NCBI GenBank assembly: GCA_003135555.1
Contig: PLCF01000026.1
Location: 22,328-42,685 of the forward strand
DNA length: 20,358 nucleotides
Direction of reading: 5' to 3'
DNA from: Vulcanimicrobiota bacterium
GTDB lineage: Bacteria > Vulcanimicrobiota > Vulcanimicrobiia > Vulcanimicrobiales > Vulcanimicrobiaceae
Part shown: positions 1-19,920 of the stretch, one piece after another
Numbering within the stretch: position 1 is the first letter of the stretch
Layout of the letters: every line of letters begins with the position of its first letter
Program-made: the position numbers and the translations under genes
The notes under the pieces: generated by a model
Seen by the model: only the letters and a program-made list of their open reading frames with translations
Told to the model about the DNA's origin: nothing
Database searches by the model: none

Positions 1-291
1 ATTGTACGCGAGGTACAGATCTTGTTGAGAACCGGTTTGACCGTCGCGCATGGTCGTCTGCGCCGCGTGCAGCCATTGCGGACCGTACGCGGTCACGACT
101 TGCGTCTCCGACATCGTTGCGGTCTTGGCCGTTCCGGCGACGTTGACCGTACGCGTGCAATGCCACGTGCCGAGCAGAAACTTGAAGCTTGCCGCTCGGT
201 CGGCGGCGGATCCGGGGGCCGGCGCGCCGATCGCGGGGGTTGCGCCGATCAGGGAAAGGGCGAGGATGAAACCGACTGCTTTTGAGTACAC
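1..291 (-). CDS. Secreted hypothetical protein, 5' part only (runs off the left edge); possibly a lipocalin-like/DUF1579-type beta-barrel
   Basis: Manually translated, not in the ORF track. GTG at 291-289 is preceded by AAGGAGA (complement of 301-307). Open for 97 codons to base 1: MYSKAVGFILALSLIGATPAIGAPAPGSAADRAASFKFLLGTWHCTRTV... There is a hydrophobic signal peptide followed by an FxxLxGxWxC motif typical of the first strand of such barrels. The fold is inference. Confidence 0.75.
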   Translation of the reverse strand, partial: MYSKAVGFILALSLIGATPAIGAPAPGSAADRAASFKFLLGTWHCTRTVNVAGTAKTATMSETQVVTAYGPQWLHAAQTTMRDGQTGSQQDLYLAYN

Positions 292-312
292 GATGTCTTC
301 TCTCCTTAGCCG

Positions 313-627
313 TCAGTTACAGACGTAGACGTAGCGATACACATAAACGCAACGACCGCCGCTACAGTAGTACACGTATCGGTAGACATAATAGCAGACC
401 GGGACCCAGGCGACTTGCGTCGGCGAGGTGCCGAGCAGTTGTGCCGCTCGCGCCGATTCCGCAGCGGACACGGGGTGCGAGACGCGGTCCGGCGCGACGC
501 CGACGTGAGCGACGGCGGCAGCGCTCGGGGTCGACACTGAGTCGGCCCGTGCGAGTGCTGGGGCCGTGCCCGCCCCCATGAGGACGCCGCATGCGAGAAG
601 GACGGAGATGACGCGGGGATATGACAA
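313..627 (-). CDS. 104-aa secreted precursor with a C-terminal Cys/Tyr-rich beta-hairpin
   Basis: C-terminal part of track ORF 313..1464. Likely TTG start at 627 after GAGGG (alternative GTG at 654). Signal peptide MSYPRVISVLLACGVLMGAGTAPALA, an Ala/Ser/Pro-rich linker, then WVPVCYYVYRYVYYCSGGRCVYVYRYVYVCN and TGA at 315-313. Confidence 0.75.
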   Translation of the reverse strand: MSYPRVISVLLACGVLMGAGTAPALARADSVSTPSAAAVAHVGVAPDRVSHPVSAAESARAAQLLGTSPTQVAWVPVCYYVYRYVYYCSGGRCVYVYRYVYVCN

Positions 628-660
628 GAATTCCCTCAGTTCATAAGGATTCACCCGCCG

Positions 661-686
661 TACAACCACACGGTACCACCGTTTCG
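661..686 (-). promoter_or_regulatory. Possible ECF-sigma promoter for the hairpin-precursor gene
   Basis: The minus strand reads cGAAAC-N16-tGTA, similar to the SigW/SigM-type TGAAAC-N16-CGTA, ~35 nt upstream of the proposed start. It is a short motif and may be chance. Confidence 0.2.
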
Positions 687-813
687 GGCTCCTGACCATG
701 GGGGCCGAGCGTGGGCCCGCGTCGTAGTGGCGCCCTTCGAGGAAATGTGGGCGGCGGCGGGTGCGCCCGCCTCGATTGTGGCGTAGTATCGGATCGGAGA
801 AGGAGAATCGACG

Positions 814-1818
814 ATGCAAAAGTTGGCAGTTTCGGCACTCGTGCTGGCGCTTGCGGCCTGTAACGGCGGTTCGAGCAGTCCGCCGGGCTTCTCGACGGGG
901 GTGGGACGCCCGCCCAGTGGGACGATCGTCGAGTACGCGATCCCCACCGCCAACGCGGGTCCGTTCGCCCTTACGCTGGGTCCCGACGGCAACATCTGGT
1001 TCACCGAGTCCAATACCGGCACCAACAAGGTCGCCAACATTACGCCGGCCGGGGTCATCACCGAGTTCACGCTGCCGACCGCCAACGCGTTTCCCGGCAA
1101 CATCGTCTCCGGGCCGGACGGCAACCTCTGGTACGTGGACGAGGCGAACCATCTCGGCAAAGTGACGACCGGGGGAACGATCACGCTGTTCCCGGCGGCC
1201 GATCCTTCCGGGCTCGCGGTGGGGCCCGACAACAACTTGTGGGTGAACGAGTTCAACGGGATGAAGGTCGACGTCTACTCGACCGCCGGCGCGCTGCTGC
1301 ACAGCTACGCATCCGGCACCAACCCGGCCAACCTGCAGCTCGAACAGATCACCGCCGGGCCCGACGGCAACATGTGGTTCGACACGTTCAGCAGCGACAA
1401 CGTCGTCAGGATGATCACCGGCACCGGCGCGACGACAGCCTTCGTCTACTCGCCGACGATCCAAAACGTCATGCGCGGCATCACCAAAGGACCCGACGGC
1501 AACGTCTGGGCGAGCGCTTCCGACAGTAACCTCATCGCGCGGATCACACCGGCGGGAGTGCTGACCACGTTCGCGATTCCGAGCGCGAACGCACAGCCCT
1601 ACGGCATCACGACCGGTCCGGACGGAAATCTCTACTTCACCGAACCCGGGGTCAATCGGACGACCAACAAGATCGGCCGCATCACGCCGACCGGCACGAT
1701 AACCGAGTTTGCGATTCCGACCGCGCTGTCCGGCCCCGTTTTCATCGCCGCCGGGCCCAACAGCACGATCTGGTTCACCGAGGGCAGCTCCAACAAGATC
1801 GGCGAGCTCTTCTTGTAA
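814..1818 (+). CDS. Lipoprotein, Vgb (virginiamycin B lyase)-like 7-bladed beta-propeller
   Basis: GAAGGAG RBS; lipobox LAAC (Cys16); seven GPDGNxW(F/Y)xE-type repeats. Confidence 0.9.
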   Translation: MQKLAVSALVLALAACNGGSSSPPGFSTGVGRPPSGTIVEYAIPTANAGPFALTLGPDGNIWFTESNTGTNKVANITPAGVITEFTLPTANAFPGNIVSGPDGNLWYVDEANHLGKVTTGGTITLFPAADPSGLAVGPDNNLWVNEFNGMKVDVYSTAGALLHSYASGTNPANLQLEQITAGPDGNMWFDTFSSDNVVRMITGTGATTAFVYSPTIQNVMRGITKGPDGNVWASASDSNLIARITPAGVLTTFAIPSANAQPYGITTGPDGNLYFTEPGVNRTTNKIGRITPTGTITEFAIPTALSGPVFIAAGPNSTIWFTEGSSNKIGELFL

Positions 1819-1877: not shown

Positions 1878-2810
1878 CTACGTGACCTCGTGGGAGTACG
1901 GCGTCATCAGCCATGCCTGCATCTCCGAGCCGCCTTGCCATGGGCCCGCGACCACCGTCGTCCCCGGCGGGAAAGGGCCCTGCGGCGACCCCGAGACGGT
2001 GAGGTACGTCTGCGGATCGGGACCGCCGCCCGTTCGCATCGTGCTATAGCCTTCGTCCTGCGCGCCGCCGACGATCCACGTCGACCACTGGCCCGCCTGC
2101 CCGGAGTCGGTACAGGTAACCGGTCCGCCGCCGGGGGCGCTTTGCATGATCATGCTGATCTCTTCGTTGGTGAAGACGACGCCGAGCGCGGTCACCCCGT
2201 CGATGAGGAAGTTGGCGTCCCACAGCTGCGCCGGGCCGGCCCCATTATCGGTGCCGTTGGGCGTCTGAATCGTCAGCTGCCCGGTCGCATTGTCGGGATT
2301 CGCCGCGAGCACCGTCGACGGGTTGCACTCCGGCGCCAGCGAGTAGTTCCAGGGGTAGTCCTGGCTGCCGCTGTCCACGAACGTCCACACCTCGTTGGGC
2401 TGCCCGCCGCCCCAGCCGTTGTAGGCGATCACCTCGCTACCCGGCGGGTAGGGCCCGTTTCCGGCGACGTTGAGGTTGATCGAGGTGCTCATCGTCGGCC
2501 GCACGGCCAGCGCGTTCCCGCCCGCCGCGACGTCCCAGGTCGATGCTGAGGACAGGCCGTCGACGATGGGCTGCAGCGCGAGGACCGACTCGCCTGCGAC
2601 CACGGTCAGGACCGACGTTTGCCCCAGCTCGCTGCTGAGCAGATTGACCATCGCGAAGCCGCCGCTCGCGTTGTCGTAGATGAGTGACCAGAACATCGCC
2701 GACGTCTGCGCCGATGCGTCCTGGACGACGATCTGACCGCTCTCCGTCGCCGCGAGCGCCAGCGTCTCGCCGTTAGGCCCCAGGCAGCCCGGCATGATGA
2801 AATATCCCAC
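1878..2810 (-). CDS. 310-aa protein with two tandem ricin-B/beta-trefoil lectin-like domains
   Basis: GTG at 2810 follows a strong GGGGAGGTG RBS; the upstream part of track ORF 1878..3602 is antisense to the glucosidase. Clear internal duplication (YFIMPGC..LAA..GQIVVQ..FW / YSLAPEC..LAA..GQLTIQ..LW; GPYPPGSEVIA..W.GG.PNEVW / GPFPPGTTVVA..WQGGSEMQAW) with QxW-like subdomain ends. Confidence 0.75.
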   Translation of the reverse strand: MGYFIMPGCLGPNGETLALAATESGQIVVQDASAQTSAMFWSLIYDNASGGFAMVNLLSSELGQTSVLTVVAGESVLALQPIVDGLSSASTWDVAAGGNALAVRPTMSTSINLNVAGNGPYPPGSEVIAYNGWGGGQPNEVWTFVDSGSQDYPWNYSLAPECNPSTVLAANPDNATGQLTIQTPNGTDNGAGPAQLWDANFLIDGVTALGVVFTNEEISMIMQSAPGGGPVTCTDSGQAGQWSTWIVGGAQDEGYSTMRTGGGPDPQTYLTVSGSPQGPFPPGTTVVAGPWQGGSEMQAWLMTPYSHEVT

Positions 2811-2897
2811 AGTACACCTCCCCGGAATGTAAGCGAGGCCTGCCCTTCGCGCGCGCGACAACAGGAAACCTTGCGGCGCCTCCGCGAGATAGCGGGG

Positions 2898-5555
2898 ATG
2901 CATCCCAATCCCGAGCGCGAGCGCATCGAGGCTGCGACGCGGCACGAAGCGCATTGGCGGCGTTGGGGTCCGTACCTGAGCGACCGCCAATGGGGTACGG
3001 TTCGCGAAGACTACAGCGCCGACGGGAACGCCTGGGACTACTTTCCCTTCGAGATGGCGCGGCTGCGCGCATATCGCTGGGGCGAGGACGGCATCCTCGG
3101 CATCTGCGACAACCACCAGCGGCTGTGCTTCGCGCCCGCGTTCTGGAACGAGCGCGACGAGATCATCAAAGAACGCTTCTACGGACTGGGCGGCCATCAG
3201 GGCAACCATGGCGAGGACGTCAAGGAGTATTGGTGGTACGTCGACGCCGTCCCGTCGCACGCATACCTCAAGGCCGTGTACCGCTATCCGCAGGCGGCCT
3301 TTCCCTACCGCGAGCTGCGCGAGCAAAACGCGGCGCGCGGGCGCGGCGAGCGCGAGTACGAGCTGGTCGACACCGGCATCTTCGCGGACGACGCCTACTT
3401 CGACATCACCGTCGAGTACGCCAAGCGCGACGTCGACGACATCCTGGTGCGCATCACTGCGACGAATCGCGGCCGGCAGAGCGCACCGCTGCACGTGCTG
3501 CCGCAGCTGTGGTTTCGCAACGAATGGTCCTGGAAGTGCGGGACACCGCGCGCCCGCATCCACGACGCCGTAGCCGGCGGCCGGGCCCTGATCGCCGAGC
3601 ACGCCACGCTGGGCAAACGCTGGATCGTCAGCGACGGCGGCGCGCAGGAGACGTTGTTCACCGAGAACGACACCGACTTCGAGCGCGCCTTCGGCGTCCC
3701 GTCACCGTCGCGGTTCGTGAAGAGCGGGATCGATCGCGCCGTGCGCGGAGAAGACCGCGACGGCATCAATCCGGCGCGCGCCGGTTCCAAAGCGGCGCTG
3801 CATTACCATTGGACCATCGAACCCGGCGCGACGCGTACCGTGCGTCTGCGCATCAGCGACCTGCCCGATGCCGGCGGCGTCGATGCGGAGTTCGACGCGA
3901 CCTTCGATCGCCGCGCCGAGGAAGCCGATCGCTTCTACGCGGCGCTCGCGCCCGCGCAACTCGACGCTGAGTCGGCGGCGATCCAGCGCAGCGCGTTCGC
4001 CGGGATGATCTGGTCCAAGCAGTTCTACAACTACGTCGTGCGGGATTGGCTGCTCGGCGACGAGCTCACGCCGCCGCCGCCCGCGGTGCGCAAGCACGGC
4101 CGCAACGCGAACTGGCTGCACCTCTACAACGACGGCGTGCTGTCGATGCCCGACACCTGGGAGTACCCGTGGTATGCGGCGTGGGACCTCGCTTTTCACG
4201 TCATCCCGTTCGGCCTGATCGATCCGGACTTCGCCAAACGGCAGCTCACGCTGCTCACGCGCGAATGGTTCATGCATCCCAGCGGACAGCTCCCGGCGTA
4301 CGAGTGGGCCTTCGACGACGTCAACCCGCCGGTACACGCCTGGGCCGCGCTACGGCTGTACAAGATCGAGGCCAAGCGCAACGGCGGCGTGGGCGACTTT
4401 CGCTTTCTCGAGCGCGCGTTCCAGAAGCTGCTGATGAACTTCACCTGGTGGGTGAACCGCAAGGACGTCGCCGGCCGCAACGTGTTCCAGGGCGGGTTCC
4501 TGGGGCTCGACAACGTCGGCCCCTTTGACCGCGGCCAGTCGCTCCCCGACGGTGCGTACCTCGCGCAGAGCGACGGCACGTCGTGGATGGCGGTCTACGC
4601 GCTCAACATGCTGGCGATCGCGATCGAGCTGGCCAAGCACGACGAAGACTACGCCGATGTCGCTTCGAAGTTCTTCGAGCACTTTCTCATCATCGCCGAC
4701 GCCATGAACTCCGAACGCGACGACGAGCCGGGGCTCTGGGACCCTGAGGACGAGTTCTACTACGACCAGGTGTACCTGCGCAACGGTGAGCGCATCCCGG
4801 TCAAGGTGCGCAGCGTCGTCGGCATCGTGCCGATCTTCGCGGTCGAGACGCTCGGCGCGCTGACGCTCGACGCGATGCCGGGCTTCAAGAAGCGCGTCGA
4901 GTGGTTTCTCGACAACCGCCCCGAGCTCGCCGAGAACGTCGCGCGCATCGACGTCGGCGGCCAGCTCGACCGGCGCCTGATGGCGATCTGCAACCCGGAC
5001 CGGTTGCGCAGCATCCTGCGGCGGGTCTTCGACGAGGACGAGTTTCTCTCGCCGCACGGGGTACGGATGCTCTCGCGCTATCACCGCGATCATCCCTACG
5101 TGCTCAAGCTCGGCGGTGAGGAGTTCCGCTGCGACTACGAACCGGCCGAGTCCAGCAGCGGGCTCTTCGGCGGGAACTCCAACTGGCGCGGCCCGGTGTG
5201 GATGCCCTTGAACTTCTTGCTGATCGAGGCGCTGCAGAAGTTCCACCACTACCTGGGCGACGAGTACACGATCGAGTTCCCGACCCGTTCGGGCCGCATG
5301 TTGACGCTGTGGCAGATCTCGCTCGAGCTTGCGGACCGGCTCGTCGGGTTGTTCCGGCGCGGCGCCGACGGTCGCCGCCCGTTCAACGGCGCGGTCGAGC
5401 TGTTCCAGACCGATGCGAATTGGCGCGACCGGCTGCTGTTCCACGAATACTTCAACGGCGATACCGGCGAAGGACTCGGCGCGTCGCATCAAACCGGCTG
5501 GACGGGCCTCGTCGCCAAGCTCATCGACCAACTCGCCGCCTACCGAGACAGGTGA
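2898..5555 (+). CDS. MGH1-like / GH63-related glycoside hydrolase (glucosidase)
   Basis: Family motifs WRRWGPYLSDRQWGTVREDYS, EYPWYAAWDLAFH, NSNWRGPVW and FHEYFNGDTGEGLGASHQTGWT. ATG at 2898 is preferred over TTG at 2871. Confidence 0.9.
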   Translation: MHPNPERERIEAATRHEAHWRRWGPYLSDRQWGTVREDYSADGNAWDYFPFEMARLRAYRWGEDGILGICDNHQRLCFAPAFWNERDEIIKERFYGLGGHQGNHGEDVKEYWWYVDAVPSHAYLKAVYRYPQAAFPYRELREQNAARGRGEREYELVDTGIFADDAYFDITVEYAKRDVDDILVRITATNRGRQSAPLHVLPQLWFRNEWSWKCGTPRARIHDAVAGGRALIAEHATLGKRWIVSDGGAQETLFTENDTDFERAFGVPSPSRFVKSGIDRAVRGEDRDGINPARAGSKAALHYHWTIEPGATRTVRLRISDLPDAGGVDAEFDATFDRRAEEADRFYAALAPAQLDAESAAIQRSAFAGMIWSKQFYNYVVRDWLLGDELTPPPPAVRKHGRNANWLHLYNDGVLSMPDTWEYPWYAAWDLAFHVIPFGLIDPDFAKRQLTLLTREWFMHPSGQLPAYEWAFDDVNPPVHAWAALRLYKIEAKRNGGVGDFRFLERAFQKLLMNFTWWVNRKDVAGRNVFQGGFLGLDNVGPFDRGQSLPDGAYLAQSDGTSWMAVYALNMLAIAIELAKHDEDYADVASKFFEHFLIIADAMNSERDDEPGLWDPEDEFYYDQVYLRNGERIPVKVRSVVGIVPIFAVETLGALTLDAMPGFKKRVEWFLDNRPELAENVARIDVGGQLDRRLMAICNPDRLRSILRRVFDEDEFLSPHGVRMLSRYHRDHPYVLKLGGEEFRCDYEPAESSSGLFGGNSNWRGPVWMPLNFLLIEALQKFHHYLGDEYTIEFPTRSGRMLTLWQISLELADRLVGLFRRGADGRRPFNGAVELFQTDANWRDRLLFHEYFNGDTGEGLGASHQTGWTGLVAKLIDQLAAYRDR

Positions 5556-5627
5556 CGCGATGCTCGCAGATTTTGGCGCCCGGATAGGGGAACGTGGCAG
5601 CGGTGCTGCGACTCGGCCGAAAGGTGC

Positions 5628-5657
5628 TTGACCGTGCGATTCTCCCGTTGGTAGGAT
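5628..5657 (+). promoter_or_regulatory. Sigma70-type promoter with extended -10
   Basis: TTGACC (5628-5633), 18 nt, TAGGAT (5652-5657), preceded by TGn. The -10 ends 7 nt before ATG 5665. Confidence 0.6.
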
Positions 5658-5664
5658 AGCCACG

Positions 5665-5856
5665 ATGGTCCCGAAGAACTCTCAGATTGCGAATGAGGCA
5701 TTCGTCCTCTACGTTCAGGCGACGGGCATCGAAGCGATTGAGAGAGAGATCGAAGCCTCGAATGGGCCGATAACGCGCGCCGAGGAAGCCGAAGCTGATC
5801 GTCGCTTGGAGGATGCACGACGCCGCGCAAAACAGCGTCAAAAGCAGCGGCGCTAG
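5665..5856 (+). CDS. 63-aa hypothetical protein resembling the C-terminal half of CopG/RHH-type antitoxins
   Basis: Fills the intergenic gap and has its own promoter. The helical charged sequence NEAFVLYVQ..IEREIEASNGPITRAEEAEADRRL recalls the E..E...GP.T.EE...A motif; this resemblance is from memory and was not searched. Confidence 0.55.
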   Translation: MVPKNSQIANEAFVLYVQATGIEAIEREIEASNGPITRAEEAEADRRLEDARRRAKQRQKQRR

Positions 5857-5964
5857 AGGCTGTCGTCCTTGACGCGCGCGTGTTCGTCGCGGTCTGACGC
5901 GCCGGCCCGCCGTCGACCTTGATATAGCGCGGAGAACCGCCGTCGCAGGACGAAGGCGCCCGGG

Positions 5965-7311
5965 ATGCGGTACGATCTCGCGGTCATCGGGTCCGGGCAG
6001 GGTGGGGTTCCGCTCGCGCTGGATTTCGCCGAGCGCGGGAAGCGCGTGGTGCTGTTCGAGCGCGGGGATCTGGGCGGCTGCTGCGTCAACGTCGGCTGCA
6101 CGCCGTCCAAAGCGTTTCTGGCGTCCGCGCACGCCGCGGGACGGGCCCGCCGCGCGAGCGACGTGCACGTGCACTGCGAGGTGCGCGTCGACGTCCCCGC
6201 GGTCATGGAACGCGTGCGCCGGCTCGTCGGGGAGTGGCGCGACGGCGTCGAAAAGAAGCTCGCCAAGAGCGCCGTCGAGCTGGTACGCGCCGAGGCGTCG
6301 TTCGATGCGCCGCATCTTCTGCGTGCCGGCGGCGAAACGTATGAGGCCGAAACCGTCGTCCTCGATACCGGCGGACGCGCCAACGTCCCACCGCTGCCGG
6401 GACTGGCCGGCACGCCCTACCTCACCAACGAGAACTTCTTCCTCCAAGAGACGCTGCCGCAGCGTCTGATCGTGCTGGGCTCGGGCTACATTGGTCTCGA
6501 GCTGGGACAAGGCGCCGCGCGCTTGGGGAGCCGGGTTACCATCGTCACGCCCGACGACCGGCTCATCGCACGCGAAGAGTCCGACGTGTGCGGCGTGCTG
6601 AGTGCATCCTTCACGCGCGACGGCATCGAGATTCGGCTCGAGCGCAAGGGCAAAGAGGTCGCCTACGACGGCACGACGTTCACCGTCACCCTCGATGACG
6701 GCACGGCGCTTACCGGCGACGGACTGCTCGTCGCGATCGGCCGCCGTCCCAACGTACCCGACGGCACCGCGGAGCGAGCCGGGATCGCGCTCGACGAGCA
6801 CGGCTTCGTGCGCTGCGACGAGCATTTGCAGACCTCCGTCGCCGGCCACTACGCGCTGGGAGACGTGGCCGGCCAGCCGCAGTTCACGCACGTGTCGTGG
6901 GAAGACTTCCGGCGTTTGAAGACCGTGATCGGCGGCGACGCGTCGCGCACGCGCGACGACCGCGTGCTGGCCTATGCCATGTACACCGAGCCGCAAGTCG
7001 GACGCGTCGGTCTGAGCACCGATCAAGCGCGCCAGCAGGGCCTCGCGCACCGCGTCGTCACGCTGCCGCTCGCGCAGGTCGCGCGCGGGGCCGAATGGGG
7101 GCTCGAAGACGGATTCTTCCGCCTGGTCGTCGATCCGCGCAGCGACGCGATCCTGGGCGCGACGTTCGCCGGATACGAAGCCGGGGAATTGATCCATGTG
7201 ATCCTCGCCCACATGGAAGCCGGCTCGACGTGGCGCGTTCTCGAGCGCTCCGTCCACATCCACCCCACCTTCGCCGAGGGGCTGCCTACGCTCGCACGGC
7301 AGCTGTTATGA
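5965..7311 (+). CDS. Class-I pyridine nucleotide-disulfide oxidoreductase (MerA-like/RclA-like group, not true MerA)
   Basis: FAD-binding GSGQGG, redox disulfide CVNVGCTPSK, NAD(P)H-binding GSGYIGLE, C-terminal HIHPTFAE. No NmerA domain and no C-terminal CC pair. Confidence 0.9.
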   Translation: MRYDLAVIGSGQGGVPLALDFAERGKRVVLFERGDLGGCCVNVGCTPSKAFLASAHAAGRARRASDVHVHCEVRVDVPAVMERVRRLVGEWRDGVEKKLAKSAVELVRAEASFDAPHLLRAGGETYEAETVVLDTGGRANVPPLPGLAGTPYLTNENFFLQETLPQRLIVLGSGYIGLELGQGAARLGSRVTIVTPDDRLIAREESDVCGVLSASFTRDGIEIRLERKGKEVAYDGTTFTVTLDDGTALTGDGLLVAIGRRPNVPDGTAERAGIALDEHGFVRCDEHLQTSVAGHYALGDVAGQPQFTHVSWEDFRRLKTVIGGDASRTRDDRVLAYAMYTEPQVGRVGLSTDQARQQGLAHRVVTLPLAQVARGAEWGLEDGFFRLVVDPRSDAILGATFAGYEAGELIHVILAHMEAGSTWRVLERSVHIHPTFAEGLPTLARQLL

Positions 7312-13776: not shown

Positions 13777-16283
13777 AAGCTGTATTGATGGCTGGGGGCG
13801 AGGGCTCCCGGCTTCGGCCACTGACCTCGCGACGGCCGAAGCCGCTGGCGCCGGTCGCCGGCAAACCGATCATGGAGTTGATCGTCGAGCTGCTGCACAA
13901 GCATGGGTTGCGCGAGGTCGTGGCGACGCTGCACTACCTCGCCGACGAGATCGAGGCCTATTTCGGCGACGGGAGCGCGCACGGGGTGACGATGCACTAC
14001 GTCGTCGAGGACACCCCGCTGGGAACCGCGGGCGCGGTCAAGATGGCGCACGACCTGCTGATCGGCGAAACGTTCCTGGTCATCAGCGGGGACGCGCTGA
14101 CCAACCTCGATCTGAGCGCGGTGGTGCGGCACCACCGCGAACAGGGGAACGACGTCACCATCGCGCTGCAGCGCGTGACCAACCCGCTGGAATTCGGCGT
14201 CGTCGTAACCGACGAGTCGGGCCGCATCGTGCGGTTTCTCGAGAAACCGTCCTGGGGTGAGGTCTTCTCCGACACGATCAACACCGGGATCTACGTGCTC
14301 GAACCGTCGATCCTTGACCGGATGCAGCGCGGCAAGGTCTACGATTTCTCCAAGGACCTGTTTCCCGACATGCTGCGCGAGGGGGCCAAACTCGGCGGCT
14401 ACGTGATCGACGCCTACTGGACGGACATCGGAAACCTCGAACAGTACCAACAAGCCAACTACGACGCGATCTCGGGCTACGTCGGCATCGAGTTCCCGGG
14501 CACGCAAGTCGCCCCCGGCGTCTATGCCGGCGAGGGCACGCGGATCGATCCGGACGCGCGGATCGAGGGGCCGGTGGTGATCGGACGCGACGTCCGCATC
14601 GCAGCCGGAACGTCGATCGTGGGACCCACCGTCATCGGCGACCGCACGATCGTGGGACGCGCAGCGAACGTCTGCCGCAGCGTGCTGTGGGAGGACGTGT
14701 ACGTCGGCGAGGAGGCGTCGCTGAGCGACTGCACCGTGGCCGACCGCAACATCATCGAGAAGCGCGCCAAGGTCAACGAGAACACCGTGCTCGGTCGCGG
14801 CTGCACGATCGGCGCCGGCGCGACGGTGAACGCGCACCTCAAACTGTGGCCCGACAAGTGGGTCAGCGCGGGCTCGATCGTCTCGATGTCGCTGATCTAC
14901 GGCCAGAAATGGCCCGGCTCGCTGTTCGGGTCGGTAGGGATCAGCGGTCTGGCGAACCTGGAGATTACCCCGGAGTTCGCACTCAAGCTCGGGCAGGCGT
15001 TCGGCACGTGGCTCAAACCCGGCCAGACGGTGATGACCAGTCGCGACACGCACCCGGCGTCGCGCGTGATGAACCGCTGCGTGATCTCCGGCTTGTTGTC
15101 GGTGGGCGTCAACGTACTCGACCTGCGGTCCTATCCGCTGCCGCTGGCACGCTACGCGGTGCGCGTCGGGAGCGACGGCGGGATGCACGTGCGCATCGCT
15201 CCCGACGATCCCAACTCGATCGTCTTCGAGTTCTTCGACGGTACGGGGATCGGGATCGACAAAGGCGCCGAACGCAAGATCGAAAACCTGTTTTTCCGCG
15301 AGGACTTCCGCCGCACGCCGATGGACGAGGTCGGCCGGCTGGATTTCCCCTCGCGCGCGCTCGAGCGGTACACCGCTTCGTTCGCGCAGGCGCTGCACGC
15401 CGAAGCGATCAAGTTCGCGAACTTCCGCGTGGTGATCGACTATGCGTTCGGCAACGCGTCGATCGTGCTGCCGCAGATCCTGGGCGGACTGGGCGTCGAA
15501 CAAATCGCGCTCAACGCCTACTTCGACGCCGCCAAGGTGCGCACGTTCCACGAGGACCGCGAGCGCCATCTGCAACAGCTCACCTCGGTCGTCACCTCGC
15601 TCGAGGCGAATCTGGGCGTGCTCATCGACGCCGACGGCGAGACCGTGACGGTGGTCGACGACGCCGGCCAGATCGTGGGCCGCAACCGCCTCATGGCGCT
15701 GCTCACGCTGCTGGTCGCACGGGCGACCCCCGGTGCGCGCATCGCGATGCCGCTCACGGTGCCGACGGTGGTAGAACGCATCGCGGCCGACAACGGCGCC
15801 ACGATCGTCCGCACGCGCAGCGACCGTCGCTCGCTCATGGCGCTGGCCGAACAGGAAGGCCGCGGACTGGCGTTTGCGGGCGGGATGAACTACGAGCTGA
15901 TCTTCCCGGAGTTCCAGCCGGCGTTCGACGGCATCTACGCGACGGCCAAGATCATGGAGTTGCTCGCTGCCGAGCACCGTCCGCTCTCCGAGCTGGTCGC
16001 GATGATCCCATCCTGGCACGTCGCGGGCCGGGTCGTGCCGTGTCCGTGGGACCGCAAAGGCGCGGTGATGCGTTCGCTCCACGACGAGGCCGCCCACGGC
16101 GGCAACGGCAAAGTCGAGACGCTCGACGGAATTCGCCTCCCGCGCTCCGACGGCTGGGTGCTCGTCCTTCCCGACGCCACCGACGCGTCGGTCAACGTCT
16201 GGGCGGAAGGCAACTCCGACGACGAGGCCGCGCGCTACGCCGACGAGATCGTCGAACGCGTGCGCGCGATCGCGGCCGGTTGA
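13773..16283 (+). CDS. Mannose-1-phosphate guanylyltransferase-like nucleotidyltransferase + left-handed beta-helix + phosphoglucomutase/phosphomannomutase-like fusion
   Basis: MKAVLMAGGEGSRLRPLT..PKPL, PLGTAG, EKP and YWTDIG; hexapeptide repeats; C-terminal alpha-phosphohexomutase-like domains (LFG..GISG, VVIDYAFG, DGIRL..GWVLVLP). Confidence 0.92.
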   Translation: MKAVLMAGGEGSRLRPLTSRRPKPLAPVAGKPIMELIVELLHKHGLREVVATLHYLADEIEAYFGDGSAHGVTMHYVVEDTPLGTAGAVKMAHDLLIGETFLVISGDALTNLDLSAVVRHHREQGNDVTIALQRVTNPLEFGVVVTDESGRIVRFLEKPSWGEVFSDTINTGIYVLEPSILDRMQRGKVYDFSKDLFPDMLREGAKLGGYVIDAYWTDIGNLEQYQQANYDAISGYVGIEFPGTQVAPGVYAGEGTRIDPDARIEGPVVIGRDVRIAAGTSIVGPTVIGDRTIVGRAANVCRSVLWEDVYVGEEASLSDCTVADRNIIEKRAKVNENTVLGRGCTIGAGATVNAHLKLWPDKWVSAGSIVSMSLIYGQKWPGSLFGSVGISGLANLEITPEFALKLGQAFGTWLKPGQTVMTSRDTHPASRVMNRCVISGLLSVGVNVLDLRSYPLPLARYAVRVGSDGGMHVRIAPDDPNSIVFEFFDGTGIGIDKGAERKIENLFFREDFRRTPMDEVGRLDFPSRALERYTASFAQALHAEAIKFANFRVVIDYAFGNASIVLPQILGGLGVEQIALNAYFDAAKVRTFHEDRERHLQQLTSVVTSLEANLGVLIDADGETVTVVDDAGQIVGRNRLMALLTLLVARATPGARIAMPLTVPTVVERIAADNGATIVRTRSDRRSLMALAEQEGRGLAFAGGMNYELIFPEFQPAFDGIYATAKIMELLAAEHRPLSELVAMIPSWHVAGRVVPCPWDRKGAVMRSLHDEAAHGGNGKVETLDGIRLPRSDGWVLVLPDATDASVNVWAEGNSDDEAARYADEIVERVRAIAAG

Positions 16284-16288
16284 ACGCG

Positions 16289-18487
16289 ATGCGACGATCG
16301 CTTCCGGCTCGGCTCGTGTTCGCGGCGGCCGCGTTCGCACTGCCGGCCGCAGCCGCAGCCCCCGCGCCTCCGGCACCGCCGCCGGTTCGGACCGTGACCG
16401 AGACCCACTTCGGCATTAGCGTGAGCGACCCGTACCGCTACTTCGAGAATCCCAAAGACCCCGGACTCGCCGCGTACTTCAAAGCGCAGAACGCGTACAC
16501 GCGCCAGGTGCTCGACGCGTTGCCCGGACGCGCGGCGCTGGCCACCCGCATCGCGCAGCTCGACAACGCGACGGAGTCGCTCACTGACGTCCAACCGGTC
16601 GGCGGCACGTTCTTCTACCAGAAGCGCCCGGCAGCCGCGAACACGACGCGGCTCTATGCGCGCGCGGTCGCCGGCGGACCCGAACGGCTGGTATTCGATC
16701 CGGACCGCTTTGCGCGCTCGTCGAAGCAGCACTACACCTTCGACTACTACTCGCCGTCGCCCGACGGCCGCTACCTTGCGATCGGCACCTCCGAAGGCGG
16801 CTCGGAGAAGACGACCCTGCACGTCGTCGACGCGAACACCGGCCGTCTGTTGCCCGACGCGATCGAGCGCGCGATCGCGATCGCTCCGTCGTGGCGCGAC
16901 GACGGCCGATCGTTCTACTATTTCCGTACGCCCGCGCCGCGCAAAGATCAGCCCGAGCGCGAGAAGGACACCAAGGGTGTGGCGCGGCTGCACGTGCTCG
17001 GGCACGACCCCGAGCGCGATCCGGCGATCTTCGGCTACGGGGTGAGCGCCCGCATCCCGTTCGCGCCCGAAGACTACGCGATCGTGAGCGTCTCGCCGCG
17101 CTCGCGCTGGGCGGTCGCAGCGATCGCTCACGGCGTGCAGAACGAGGTCGCGGTCTACGTCGCGCCCGCGTCGGCGGCCGTCGACGGGCGCACACCGTGG
17201 CGCAAGCTCGCCGGCTACGCGGACCACGTCACCGAGGCCATCGCCGTCGGCGACACGCTCTATCTCAGCTCGCACAAAGGCGCTTCGCGGCATCGCATCT
17301 TGGCGTTGGATCTGGCCCTGAGCCCGTCGAAGGGGGGAACCCTGGCGACGGCGCGCGTCGCGGTTCCGGAATCCACGCGCGTCATCGAGGACATCTCGCT
17401 CGCGGGTGACGGCATCTATCTGCGCGACCTCGAAGGCGGGCTCTCGAAGCTGCGCCGGCTCGCGCTCAGCCGCGACGGCTCGCCCGGCGCGCTCGCCGAG
17501 GTCGCGCTGCCGTTCGCCGGTGCGATCGGCAGCGTCGCAACCGATCCGATGGTCCCCGGCGCGACGTTCGTGCTGCAGTCTTGGACCGAGTCGCCGCGCT
17601 GGTATCGCAGCGGGCTCAACATCGCCCTCAGCGACACCGGGCTGCGCCGCGCGTCAGACGTCGACTTCTCCTCGATCACCTCGCGCGAGGTGCTCGCCAC
17701 GAGCGCCGACGGCACGAGGGTCCCCCTCTCGATCGTGATGCGCAAGGACGCGCCGGTCGACGGGATGCGCCCGACGTGGCTCGACGGTTACGGCGCCTAC
17801 GGCATCGTCATCCGGCCCGGGTTCTCGGCGACGCGGCTGGCTTGGCTCGAGCGCGGCGCGATCTATGCCGAATGCCATCCGCGCGGCGGCGGCGAGTACG
17901 GCGAGGATTGGCACTTCGGCGCGCACATCGCCACCAAACAACGGACCGTCGACGACTTCATCGCTTGCGCGCAGTACCTGATCGACCAGAAATACACCCA
18001 GCCCGCCAAGCTGGCCGGCAGCGGCACCAGCGCCGGGGGCGTCACCATCGGCAACGCGATCGTGCAGCACCCCGAGCTCTGGGCGGCGGCGCTCGACGTC
18101 GTCGGCGACACCAATCCGGTGCGCGACGAGTTCGCCGAAGGCGGCCCGGCCAACATCCCGGAGTTCGGTTCGATCGCGAACAAGGTCGGCTGGGACGCAC
18201 TCTACGCCACCGATCCCTACGTGCACGTCCGCGACGGCGTCGCGTATCCGGCCGTGCTGGCGATCACCGGTGCCAACGATCCGCGCGTCGCGCCCTGGAT
18301 CGTCGCGAAGTTCGCGGCCCGGCTGCAAGCGGCGACGTCCAGCCGGAAGCCGGTATTGCTGCGCGTCGACTACGACGCCGGACACGGCTATCTCGGCAGC
18401 TCGCGCGCGCAGGCACAGGCGCTCACCAGCGACGAGTTCTCGTTCTTGTTGTGGCAGCTCGGCGATCCTGAGTTCGCGGCGCCCTAG
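16289..18487 (+). CDS. Secreted prolyl oligopeptidase (S9A)
   Basis: Signal peptide MRRSLPARLVFAAAAFALPAAAAA; DPYRYFE, GYGAYG, RGGGEYGEDWH; triad motifs GTSAGG, NDPRV and AGHG. An alternative in-frame TTG start at 16280 overlaps the upstream TGA. Confidence 0.93.
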   Translation: MRRSLPARLVFAAAAFALPAAAAAPAPPAPPPVRTVTETHFGISVSDPYRYFENPKDPGLAAYFKAQNAYTRQVLDALPGRAALATRIAQLDNATESLTDVQPVGGTFFYQKRPAAANTTRLYARAVAGGPERLVFDPDRFARSSKQHYTFDYYSPSPDGRYLAIGTSEGGSEKTTLHVVDANTGRLLPDAIERAIAIAPSWRDDGRSFYYFRTPAPRKDQPEREKDTKGVARLHVLGHDPERDPAIFGYGVSARIPFAPEDYAIVSVSPRSRWAVAAIAHGVQNEVAVYVAPASAAVDGRTPWRKLAGYADHVTEAIAVGDTLYLSSHKGASRHRILALDLALSPSKGGTLATARVAVPESTRVIEDISLAGDGIYLRDLEGGLSKLRRLALSRDGSPGALAEVALPFAGAIGSVATDPMVPGATFVLQSWTESPRWYRSGLNIALSDTGLRRASDVDFSSITSREVLATSADGTRVPLSIVMRKDAPVDGMRPTWLDGYGAYGIVIRPGFSATRLAWLERGAIYAECHPRGGGEYGEDWHFGAHIATKQRTVDDFIACAQYLIDQKYTQPAKLAGSGTSAGGVTIGNAIVQHPELWAAALDVVGDTNPVRDEFAEGGPANIPEFGSIANKVGWDALYATDPYVHVRDGVAYPAVLAITGANDPRVAPWIVAKFAARLQAATSSRKPVLLRVDYDAGHGYLGSSRAQAQALTSDEFSFLLWQLGDPEFAAP

Positions 18488-19920
18488 CGACCGGGCGTCT
18501 CGAAACGGATGAAGCCGCGGCGATAGTCGAGGACGAGGTTATAGCGCCGCAGCACGCGCACGCCGACGTTCGCGGCGACGGTGGGGTTCGCTTCGGCGCC
18601 GGCGACCGCGTCGGTGAGCAGCAGCGGGACGTCGGCGATGTGCAGCGTGCCGAGCCGCAGCTCCCCGCCGTGCGCGAAGTAGGCGTGGATCGGCCCGCCG
18701 ACGCCGGCGATCGGATAGTCGGATGTGACCGCGTGATAGCGCGCGCGCAGATCGTGCAACTGCACGAACGGCGCATTGACGTCGACCCCGCTCCCGCTTC
18801 CGGTGTCGATCGTCATGACGCCCGGGATCCCGTCGAGCGCGCCGTCGAGCTGCGGCTGGCGCTCGTCGAAGACGAACGGCACGTCGACGCCGGGTCCGTC
18901 GAACGCGCGCCCGTCGGTCGCGAGCTCGAACCGTTCGTGCTCGAAGTCCAAGCGCACGGCAAAGCGCGCGAGCAGCTCGTAACCGACGATCCCGTCGAAC
19001 GGCGCCGCCTTGCCGAGGTCGAGCACGACGAACGGCTGATCCCGCATGATCGCGGGCCCGATGGCGACGCTGCGCGCAGTCGCGTACTGAACGTTCGCCA
19101 GGCCCGCGCCGGCGCCGCCGACGCTTCCGCGGCCGGCGACTTGTAAGCCGGCGCGGCGTGCCGCGTCCGGCGTGATCACATTTTGCCCGCCGGTGTCGAG
19201 CAGAAACCGCAGCGGCTCGCCCCCGTTGACCGACAGCACGATGACCGGGACCGGAAAGGACGACACCAGGTGGCCGACGTGCACGCCGGCAAGCTCGAAG
19301 TCGCGCGGCGGCGCGGGCGGGGCAAACGTGGTGGCCGGGACAGACGCCGGCGTCTCGACGGCGCTCACGCGCGCTTCCCACGTTCCGTTGTCCGACGTGT
19401 CCGTGATCGCGTAGGGCACGATGAGCTCGCCCGCGACGCGATAATCGGCGAACGTCGTACGCTCCGTCTGCTGGCCGACGTGTTGCACGACCGCGGTCAC
19501 GTTGCCCGTCGCCGAATCGACCGCGACCTCCGGCGCTCGCGAACCGCAGCCGCACGGCTGCGTGTGCGGAGTGAGCAGGTGCGACCACGCGACGATCGCG
19601 CCGCGCTCGTCGACGTTGCCTTGCGCGCGCGGCATCCCGGTCGCGTCGGCGCGCCACGCGTGCGTGCCGTCCCAGCCTTCGCGCTCCGAGACGGAGCCGG
19701 CGTCGAAGCGGCGCACGAACGATCCGCTCGCGCGGTCGACAACGATCTCCCCGCGGCCGCGAATACCGTACGCGGTGACGTCGAGCAGCAAGCGCACGTA
19801 GCGGGGCGCGCGCGCGGCCGGCGCCGCCTGTCGGATCACCCGGATATCTGGGACCGCGCTCGCGTGCAGAGGGGAAGCGGGGAGTGCGAGCGCGGCCGTG
19901 ACGGCCATAAAGAACGTCAC
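18484..19920 (-). CDS. Secreted aspartyl protease with two retropepsin-like domains
   Basis: Signal peptide; FLLDTGG...DGIVG and TIDTGS...ANVG motif pairs. Its stop overlaps the peptidase stop in CTAG (18484-18487). The start is GTG 19920 or ATG 19908. Confidence 0.85.
   Translation of the reverse strand: MTFFMAVTAALALPASPLHASAVPDIRVIRQAAPAARAPRYVRLLLDVTAYGIRGRGEIVVDRASGSFVRRFDAGSVSEREGWDGTHAWRADATGMPRAQGNVDERGAIVAWSHLLTPHTQPCGCGSRAPEVAVDSATGNVTAVVQHVGQQTERTTFADYRVAGELIVPYAITDTSDNGTWEARVSAVETPASVPATTFAPPAPPRDFELAGVHVGHLVSSFPVPVIVLSVNGGEPLRFLLDTGGQNVITPDAARRAGLQVAGRGSVGGAGAGLANVQYATARSVAIGPAIMRDQPFVVLDLGKAAPFDGIVGYELLARFAVRLDFEHERFELATDGRAFDGPGVDVPFVFDERQPQLDGALDGIPGVMTIDTGSGSGVDVNAPFVQLHDLRARYHAVTSDYPIAGVGGPIHAYFAHGGELRLGTLHIADVPLLLTDAVAGAEANPTVAANVGVRVLRRYNLVLDYRRGFIRFETPGR

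Follow-up and report, generated by a model that had tools for sequence, protein, structure and literature searches.

The locus raises two questions: whether a 104-codon frame on the minus strand, at positions 313..627 of the window (the whole 20,358-nucleotide stretch of Vulcanimicrobiota DNA that was analysed), is a gene, and what its product does. The original prediction saw here a secreted precursor ending in a tyrosine-rich, two-disulfide beta-hairpin, hidden at the end of a spurious 383-aa ORF with a TTG start. The ORF list and its translation bear this out: the frame (TTG start, TGA stop) is the 3' end of a 383-codon ORF (313..1464), whose upstream part is mostly an antisense shadow of a Vgb-like gene on the plus strand (814-1818). 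The hairpin gene itself is real. A protein search found 20 relatives of the precursor among 62 candidates (the window's own protein counted), and the cysteine spacing that homologues were expected to share, 9-4-9, is kept in 20 out of 20 aligned rows. When the 3.57 Mb genome is read in six frames, the pattern C-x9-C-x4-C-x9-C occurs four times, and only the match in the window's hairpin gene has aromatic strands and a terminal stop.

The upstream regions of 12 hairpin genes could be aligned. They share a GAGG-type ribosome-binding site before a TTG or GTG start (632..637 in the window, minus strand; one region has a single change) and conserved columns that resemble an extended -10 promoter element, TG-n-TA-nnn-T (670..678, minus strand; putative function), and these common features support the TTG start. 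Further upstream is an operator-like element (697..716, minus strand) that in the alignment reads GGG-N4-CCCCC in most relatives; its left half is eroded in the window's genome, and similar elements are also found upstream in loci L072 and L109. A scan of the window's own genome for the operator gave 79 loose matches, none with a -10 element, and a regulon was not found. Of the 20 database records, 9 begin at an internal methionine, Met17, and have lost most of the signal peptide, so the signal peptide is often clipped by annotation; the earlier warning that annotation could miss the gene was apt in this sense.

Translation and alignment support the proposed order of signal peptide, Ala/Ser/Pro linker and hairpin core in an exported precursor, the signal being read from sequence. 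Residues 1-26 (550..627; this and the following segments are on the minus strand) form a predicted Sec-type signal peptide cut after Ala24-x-Ala26; in the 20-row alignment Ala26 is invariant and Ala24 nearly so. A lipoprotein was considered and rejected: Cys13 is a weak lipobox look-alike, and this Cys is missing from 3 out of 4 distant members. Two sources describe a diderm phylum in their available text (PMC6664022, PMC9758169) and Omp85 is present in the window's genome, hence Sec should deliver the precursor to the periplasm. The pro-region or linker, residues 27-70 (418..549), is rich in Ala, Ser and Pro and contains a genus-specific helix (about 53-66; 55-65 in the AlphaFold model), while distant members have a shorter pro-region and no helix. 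It is followed by a short, conserved hydrophobic segment with a Gln-Val-Ala type start, residues 71-77 (397..417), a possible processing boundary or third strand; Lys or Arg precedes this segment in some members and is absent there in the window's gene. Residues 78-104 (316..396) are the hairpin core. The alignment shows a variable pro-region and a near-invariant core, and dN/dS, pooled from pairwise comparisons of 14 genes of the genus (pairs that are not independent), is 0.087 in the core, 0.34 in residues 71-77, 0.64 in the linker and 0.47 in both the helix and the signal peptide. The 27-residue core is thus under strong purifying selection.

What does this selection preserve? The core translates as CYYVYRYVYYCSGGRCVYVYRYVYVCN, and its four cysteines (Cys78, Cys88, Cys93, Cys103), ten Tyr and three Arg, with no Asp or Glu, are as first noted. 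An AlphaFold model based on the 20-row alignment has strands at 78-89 and 92-103 around a Gly90-Gly91 turn, with pLDDT 66-70 in the core and 53 overall. The original prediction had paired the cysteines and tyrosines in the register i+j=181; because the modelled strands flank the Gly-Gly turn, the model agrees with these pairs, with moderate confidence. Non-hydrogen-bonded cross-strand positions are the ones that host disulfides and tryptophan-zipper pairs, and a two-residue turn would put the Cys pairs and the four Tyr pairs on the same set of such positions. The model therefore supports a single face shared by both putative disulfides and the four Tyr-Tyr pairs. Given the composition, the chance of finding aromatic residues at all 8 positions of the Cys face is 0.001.

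This face can be followed through the 17 distinct hairpin genes of the fetched loci, which are the set used for all core and linkage counts. It is Tyr or Trp at 128 out of 128 positions, and the opposite face has Val, Ala, Arg or Glu. The window's genus has strands of 9+9 residues and the other two genera strands of 7+7; the turns, 4 or 5 residues long, contain Arg in 17 out of 17 genes. Measured from the first Cys, the core is at least 27 residues long in the window's gene and 23-25 in distant members. Lys is absent from all 17 cores. Cores of the window's genus have a charge of +3, and those of the four distant members have charges of 0, -2, +1 and -2. In these sequences, the invariant feature of the hairpin is its aromatic face and not its charge. 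With charges from +3 to -2, a cationic lysis of the tachyplesin kind is not to be assumed for the family as a whole: the analogy once drawn with tachyplesin and protegrin fits the window's genus (+3) but not 3 of the 4 distant cores, which are neutral or acidic (0, -2, -2). Together with the 15 residues before it, the core is cationic in 9 out of 9 cases tested (+1.1 to +4.0 at pH 7), acidic cores being preceded by basic residues and basic cores by a neutral to acidic linker. This offset is compatible with a pro-region that masks the core, or else with basic sites at which cleavage frees an acidic peptide, and the two predict opposite mature charges. Both 9-residue strands are palindromic in the window, as had been pointed out, which follows from their strict alternation, but perfect palindromes are not kept in relatives. 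We therefore do not regard palindromy or arm duplication as the key feature: the arms match at 25 out of 33 bases, yet the relatives break the symmetry.

A second gene, overlooked by the original prediction although it is within the same window, lies immediately downstream. It starts 21 bases after the hairpin stop, has the same orientation (291-1, minus strand) and runs left past the window; the 97 codons of its 5' part in the window (1..291) belong to a ten-stranded beta-barrel of 175 aa that is exported and has one Cys pair. Its ribosome-binding site (300..307, minus strand) reads GGAGAG in all 6 distinct spacers compared. The spacers between hairpin and barrel are about 5-40 bases long by printed gaps, and in the spacer of L003 a terminator-like site was not found. 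The window's copy is broken by an assembly gap (N) at G000:C11 about 22313-22328, so that residues about 98-123 are absent from the assembly; it is probably not a pseudogene, because the gene is intact in close relatives. The barrel follows the hairpin gene in all 16 loci with downstream DNA among the 17 distinct genes, and its first-strand motif is found 124-152 bases after the hairpin stop in 16 out of 16. Hairpin and barrel form a module of two genes, the exported barrel being dedicated to it. In four of five RNA runs, contigs of a relative match the barrel gene at 34-196 (X1, depth 2) and 1-138 (X2) and none is found at 321-448; these contigs show neither absence nor transcription.

The partner gave no hit in Pfam or NCBIfam (two genus-level copies for DUF1579). 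Two distant linked copies score 22.3 and 22.9 bits with DUF1579 (PF07617), below the curated cut-off of 25.2, and the ESM Atlas gives a DUF1579 lead as well (21% of one cluster). The barrel model has ten strands (pLDDT 85) and matches the folds of nitrobindins (Z 15, rmsd 3.0 over 142-144 residues), the OlmO/OssO spirocyclases (Z 14.8), bilin lyases (Z 13.6) and the anti-sigma factor RsfG (Z 13.1), with Foldseek E between 2e-6 and 6e-4, Z 13-15 overall and 10-17% identity to the solved relatives. The partner thus shares its modelled fold with the DUF1579/nitrobindin-like barrels but differs from them in falling below the Pfam cut-off, in being exported, in having its own Cys pair and in the absence of the heme His from most copies: 18 out of 19 genus-level barrels have no His on the last strand (alignment A2), the nitrobindin heme-ligand position being mapped approximately.

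The barrel family is found in 134 out of 301 genomes of the host family (a tally that includes one unpublished genome, G416, which enters no other result), mostly as a stand-alone gene. In a tree of 38 barrels, which omits the window's own gapped copy, a fragment in G166, identical rows and weaker matches, the 13 linked barrels and one truncated duplicate form one branch (98/93) that spans three genera, as against 24 unlinked barrels. Glu117 is present in 13 out of 13 linked and 0 out of 24 unlinked barrels, and Trp157 in 13 linked and 2 unlinked ones; Glu62, Asp109, Glu117 and Glu170 are invariant in the linked barrels, and the Cys pair is kept in all 37 barrels compared. Strand alternation places Glu117 on the side of Tyr96 and Trp103, which is probably the lumen. 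An upstream search of the best 37 of 232 barrel matches exposed a hairpin gene in G110 that the profile had missed, and among these 37 no intact orphan barrel of the linked branch was found in the 301 genomes. The two hairpin-less copies of the branch, the G091 duplicate and the G166 fragment, are both cut at the 5' end. Pairwise distances of hairpins and barrels are correlated (Spearman 0.65, 10 loci, kin that are not independent). A complex prediction for barrel residues 22-175 and precursor residues 50-104 gave a median of 0.23 as compared to the mark of 0.32, with controls not folded, and so weighs neither for nor against a complex. We judge it likely, and likelier than any single role of the hairpin, that the barrel acts on it somehow.

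A few observations on these barrels may be added. In G091 (L106, G091:C5:214500-221500, 3029-7001) the 5'-truncated second barrel is found beside a DDE transposase gene. After it come an ORF of 149 aa and genes for a ThiF-like protein and YcaO, which look like an azole-type RiPP cluster and have no relation to the hairpin. The barrel in L108/L086 (G166:C1 about 362867-363190) is of the hairpin-linked type, with the C-terminal two thirds left and no hairpin remnant upstream, and is what remains of a decayed module. The exported DUF1579-like barrels of the host family, which conserve one Cys pair and have no Pfam model, make up a large group rich in paralogues, with up to six matches per genome, and two of them stand in tandem in G368 (L105).

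Named records place the hairpin family in the Eremiobacterota (Vulcanimicrobiota, WPS-2). The hairpin profile found it in 5 out of 41 relatives, all in one genus, and a wider profile in 8 of the 401 genomes from the phylum. Of the same 401, a degenerate DNA pattern picked out 29, and the translated loci leave at least 9 of these with a hairpin gene; these counts rest on the matches listed, at least one in each of the 29 genomes. Among the matches listed, the hairpin-barrel pair is found in one Eremiobacterota family, where three genera have it. Three proteins were recovered from 1.84 billion representatives, and two of them are family members; the other one (P0023) is a repeat protein aligned to the helix alone and was rejected. 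A pattern scan of metagenomes gave 52 matches, with at least 10 family members among the 40 translated, the remaining translated matches being other proteins or short chance frames, and the only match of a viral scan has an internal stop and is not a member. These patterns, which would miss cores with other turns, detected no member in viral contigs or beyond the phylum. Four lower-GC metagenome contigs (L014, L025, L035, L043) encode long Cys/Tyr/Ser-rich repeat proteins with internal Tyr-Cys-Gly-Gly-Arg matches in an unrelated context, and these proteins possibly hold similar hairpin units.

Within the genus, the pair is flanked by an EamA/thiC block and by a glycogen/glucosidase block, and the passenger upstream of it varies; in the other genera its flanks are unrelated. 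Near the module no modifying enzyme, protease, exporter or transporter, regulator, kinase or sigma factor is conserved in L002-L006, L072-L074 and L109. This agrees with the earlier remark that no maturase was visible; the neighbouring peptidase, transporter or oxidase that was also suggested is conserved in none of these sets of flanks, and the idea of a dityrosine-crosslinking substrate is weakened, as an oxidase is not linked to the hairpin loci. The upstream slot of the module (814-1818, plus strand, and about 1878-2650, minus strand, in the window) is an insertion hot spot. It holds a Vgb-like propeller lipoprotein of the Vgb-lyase family in the window, a Uma2 endonuclease gene in L006, and a ricin-B lectin-like gene of which L004 has a complete copy, L002, L003 and L005 have a part and L006 has none; neither the Vgb-like nor the ricin-like gene is conserved across loci, and we do not count them as parts of the module. 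An exported prolyl-oligopeptidase gene and an aspartyl-protease-like gene are found at about 16280-19920 of the window (plus strand) and are not next to the module in other loci. In L072 (139-4040) and L073 (8329-12190) the module is followed on the 3' side by a dienelactone-hydrolase gene and a trypsin-like/Sel1-repeat gene. The latter, two genes from the module and present in these two related genomes only, might encode a processing protease, and the L072 and L073 precursors have two basic residues directly before the conserved segment; it is absent from the other loci.

The machinery for disulfide formation is also patchy. DsbB was not found in any of the 6 genomes tested and VKOR was found in 2 out of 6, both from the two other genera, so that neither was found in the four genomes of the window's genus (G000, G009, G020 and G091, 84-99% complete). 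A DsbA-like protein occurs in 2 out of 5 genomes tested. Two of the four genomes of the window's genus have a DsbA-like gene, and all four encode exported Cys-pair proteins.

At first sight the hairpin resembles the animal hairpin antimicrobial peptides (tachyplesin/polyphemusin, protegrin, gomesin, arenicin and alvinellacin). Both are single hairpins with two nested Cys pairs and an inner C-x4-C, have an Arg/Gly turn and Arg without Lys, and are the C-terminal part of an exported precursor. The window's family differs in being bacterial, in its 7- or 9-residue strands between cysteines and 23-27 aa core, in having far more Tyr, and in its charge of +3 to -2 where theirs is always cationic; it has no sequence or fold match to them and is known here from genes and models. 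In the available text of PMC13001179, beta-hairpin antimicrobial peptides are defined as single hairpins of 11-25 residues with at least one Cys pair at least three residues apart, a charge of +1 to +8, Arg over Lys, and an experimental structure or disulfide together with activity, and the class is described as uniformly cationic and poor in Glu. Here the single hairpin comes from a model, the Cys spacing is uniform with putative bonds, and Arg exceeds Lys. The charge falls in the range in the window's genus and in one of the four distant members, with presumed mature ends, and the window's core, at 27 residues or more, exceeds the length range. The hairpin may work like these peptides, and we do not file it as a member of the class. 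Comparable in one respect are the BRICHOS-chaperoned precursors of arenicin and alvinellacin (described in the same text), which also combine an aggregation-prone hairpin with a dedicated helper from the same locus; in our case the helper is a separate ten-stranded barrel and not a fused domain, and its chaperone role is putative.

Bacterial systems show other parallels. The class IId defensin-like bacteriocins actifensin and laterosporulin, as far as the accessible part of PMC6989792 describes them, are likewise unmodified disulfide-rich bacterial peptides made from small precursors. They have three disulfides and a defensin fold, and actifensin has a 32-residue leader and an operon with ABC transporters, a protease and a LuxR regulator. 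Here there are two putative disulfides, a Sec signal, a diderm host and one partner gene. Sec-exported bacteriocins need no dedicated exporter or protease. An adjacent gene that could be a cognate, putative immunity gene is present in 16 out of 16 loci, but no dedicated exporter or protease is conserved across L002-L006, L072-L074 and L109 and the core has four Cys and not a three-disulfide pattern, and on these grounds a defensin-like bacteriocin is excluded. A RiPP of known type was rejected as no known modifying enzyme is conserved in the fetched loci. A curli-type system was also rejected: the outer-membrane channel is absent from the loci, and CsgG, found in 2 out of 5 hairpin carriers tested, is unlinked to them.

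Searches for described relatives were negative. The hairpin precursor had no hit of note in Pfam, no hit in NCBIfam and no usable hit in the ESM Atlas, and a search of the PDB sequences with profile A3 found no solved relative; its sole match, an antibody chain (E 0.68), was rejected. Fold searches with the precursor model gave nothing at E <= 0.001 (best Z 2.9), but with a model of such low confidence they are uninformative on novelty. No paper on the hairpin family was found in the literature covered, to which most subscription papers and supplements are external, so that a supplementary peptide table could mention it. We conclude that the hairpin-barrel family is undescribed, and that what sets it apart is its barrel partner together with a tyrosine face that does not depend on charge.

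We tentatively favour, with somewhat less than even confidence, an exported antagonistic hairpin that is held in check by its cognate barrel, acting as an immunity protein or an anti-aggregation chaperone. The two genes would form an operon, probably regulated, and both products would pass the inner membrane by Sec, as their signal peptides suggest. The core would then fold into a rigid hairpin with two cross-strand disulfides, one all-aromatic face and one variable charged face, masked by a pro-region of opposing charge until a general protease trims it. By analogy, the freed hairpin might attack other bacteria, either with the tyrosine face on the membrane or by adding an edge strand to an envelope protein, while the barrel would retain the sticky hairpin in the producer's periplasm, conferring immunity and averting aggregation. 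We speculate that the turn arginine docks near the branch-specific Glu117.

We are led to this antagonist by the precursor design (a variable pro-region before a near-invariant core), by the nested two-disulfide hairpin with an Arg/Gly turn, a layout shared with polyphemusin III as far as the source describes it, and by the small cognate gene that follows in all 16 loci with downstream DNA, belongs to one tree branch and has correlated distances. The patchy, accessory distribution (at least 9 out of 401 genomes) at unrelated sites in different genera, the cationic character of core plus 15 residues and the coincidence of a universal turn Arg with the Glu117 of linked barrels argue in the same direction. 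So does the structural neighbour RsfG, which according to the available text of PMC7730460 blocks, by binding to it, the product of a neighbouring gene co-transcribed with its own. The same antagonist is harder to reconcile with the neutral or acidic charge of 3 out of 4 distant cores, when the peptide class is uniformly cationic in the available text of PMC13001179, and with a core that hardly varies within the genus, in contrast to the degenerate actifensins of PMC6989792 (as far as its accessible part goes). The lack of a conserved adjoining protease or exporter, a cleavage site that is not conserved, an outer membrane to be crossed, and the scarcity of DsbB and VKOR also count against it. 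Orphan immunity genes are common, and the absence of an intact orphan of the branch among the best 37 of 232 barrel matches is a further point on this side.

The main rival is a self-assembling structural or adhesive subunit, with hairpins joining edge to edge into sheets that pair through their tyrosine faces into a fibre or film, and with the barrel as chaperone or nucleator. We think it rather unlikely on the whole, but it is the best account of the aromatic face, which is invariant where charge is not, and of strand lengths that shift in matched steps (9+9 or 7+7), so that the register is preserved. A near-frozen core would suit a polymer that contacts itself, and the mutual retention of the two genes would suit a chaperone. 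The functional amyloid systems CsgA/CsgC and FapC/FapA also consist of a Sec-exported beta-prone subunit and a small exported helper. The hairpin differs from CsgA and FapC in having no imperfect repeats and no linked outer-membrane channel (the CsgG of two carriers is in none of their hairpin loci) and in being a disulfide-locked hairpin and not a beta-solenoid, and one would less typically expect a core surface structure to occur so patchily. Quite unlikely, in our view, is a pair for ligand capture or signalling, in which the aromatic face binds a small molecule, metal or polysaccharide, or the hairpin serves as a peptide signal, with the barrel as carrier or receptor. Fold neighbours of the barrel do bind small ligands (nitrobindin, bilin lyases, fatty-acid binders), the family is widespread and mostly stand-alone, the operator-like element suggests induction, and some loci have the lectin-like gene upstream; but that gene is whole in L004 only, the neighbourhood has no conserved regulator, kinase, sigma factor or transporter, and signals usually diversify between species, which the hairpin core does not.

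Harder still to accept is the barrel as a maturase that cross-links, cyclises or decorates the hairpin, which would make a new RiPP type. Enzymes share the barrel fold (the OlmO/OssO spirocyclases and the bilin lyases), four acidic residues are invariant in the linked barrels, and one dedicated branch is strictly linked. Nitrobindin-type lumens, on the other hand, hold small molecules and would not fit a 27-residue hairpin, a cofactor-supplying gene is not linked, and heme-driven Tyr coupling is unlikely because 18 out of 19 genus-level barrels have no His near the (approximately mapped) heme-ligand position. The least probable explanation, and to us a very improbable one, is an ordinary periplasmic mini-protein whose gene travels with the barrel gene by descent, with no mutual action. 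Kin share the gene order, and the tree requires only one origin of linkage. Against such passive linkage, the pair is intact across three genera while all flanking genes change, the spacers are short, and both hairpin-less copies of the branch are truncated, one of them a duplicate beside a transposase.

If the antagonist were confirmed, the family could be a natural bacterial beta-hairpin antibiotic family, independent of animals, in which a disulfide-clamped tyrosine zipper and not charge is the working surface and a lipocalin-like barrel is a new type of immunity protein or a BRICHOS-like chaperone; this combined claim is doubtful, though worth stating. The available text of PMC13001179 counts fewer than 30 families of disulfide-closed hairpin antimicrobial peptides, those reviewed being animal, plant or synthetic, and asks whether such families are scarce or have simply been missed. 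With one scaffold occurring naturally in cationic, neutral and acidic form, charge could be tested directly against the aromatic face as the driver of activity, and a core of 23-27 residues is within reach of synthesis. If a beta-prone hairpin is indeed tamed by a separate barrel, the pair would be a new immunity or anti-aggregation module, and should the core polymerise instead, it would be a natural disulfide-locked 'tyrosine zipper' material; the narrowness of the family tempers this interest. As a last observation, L073 has at 2736-2948 (plus strand) a small exported ORF with a Trp/His/Arg-rich end between two Cys, a candidate single-disulfide hairpin of a different type.
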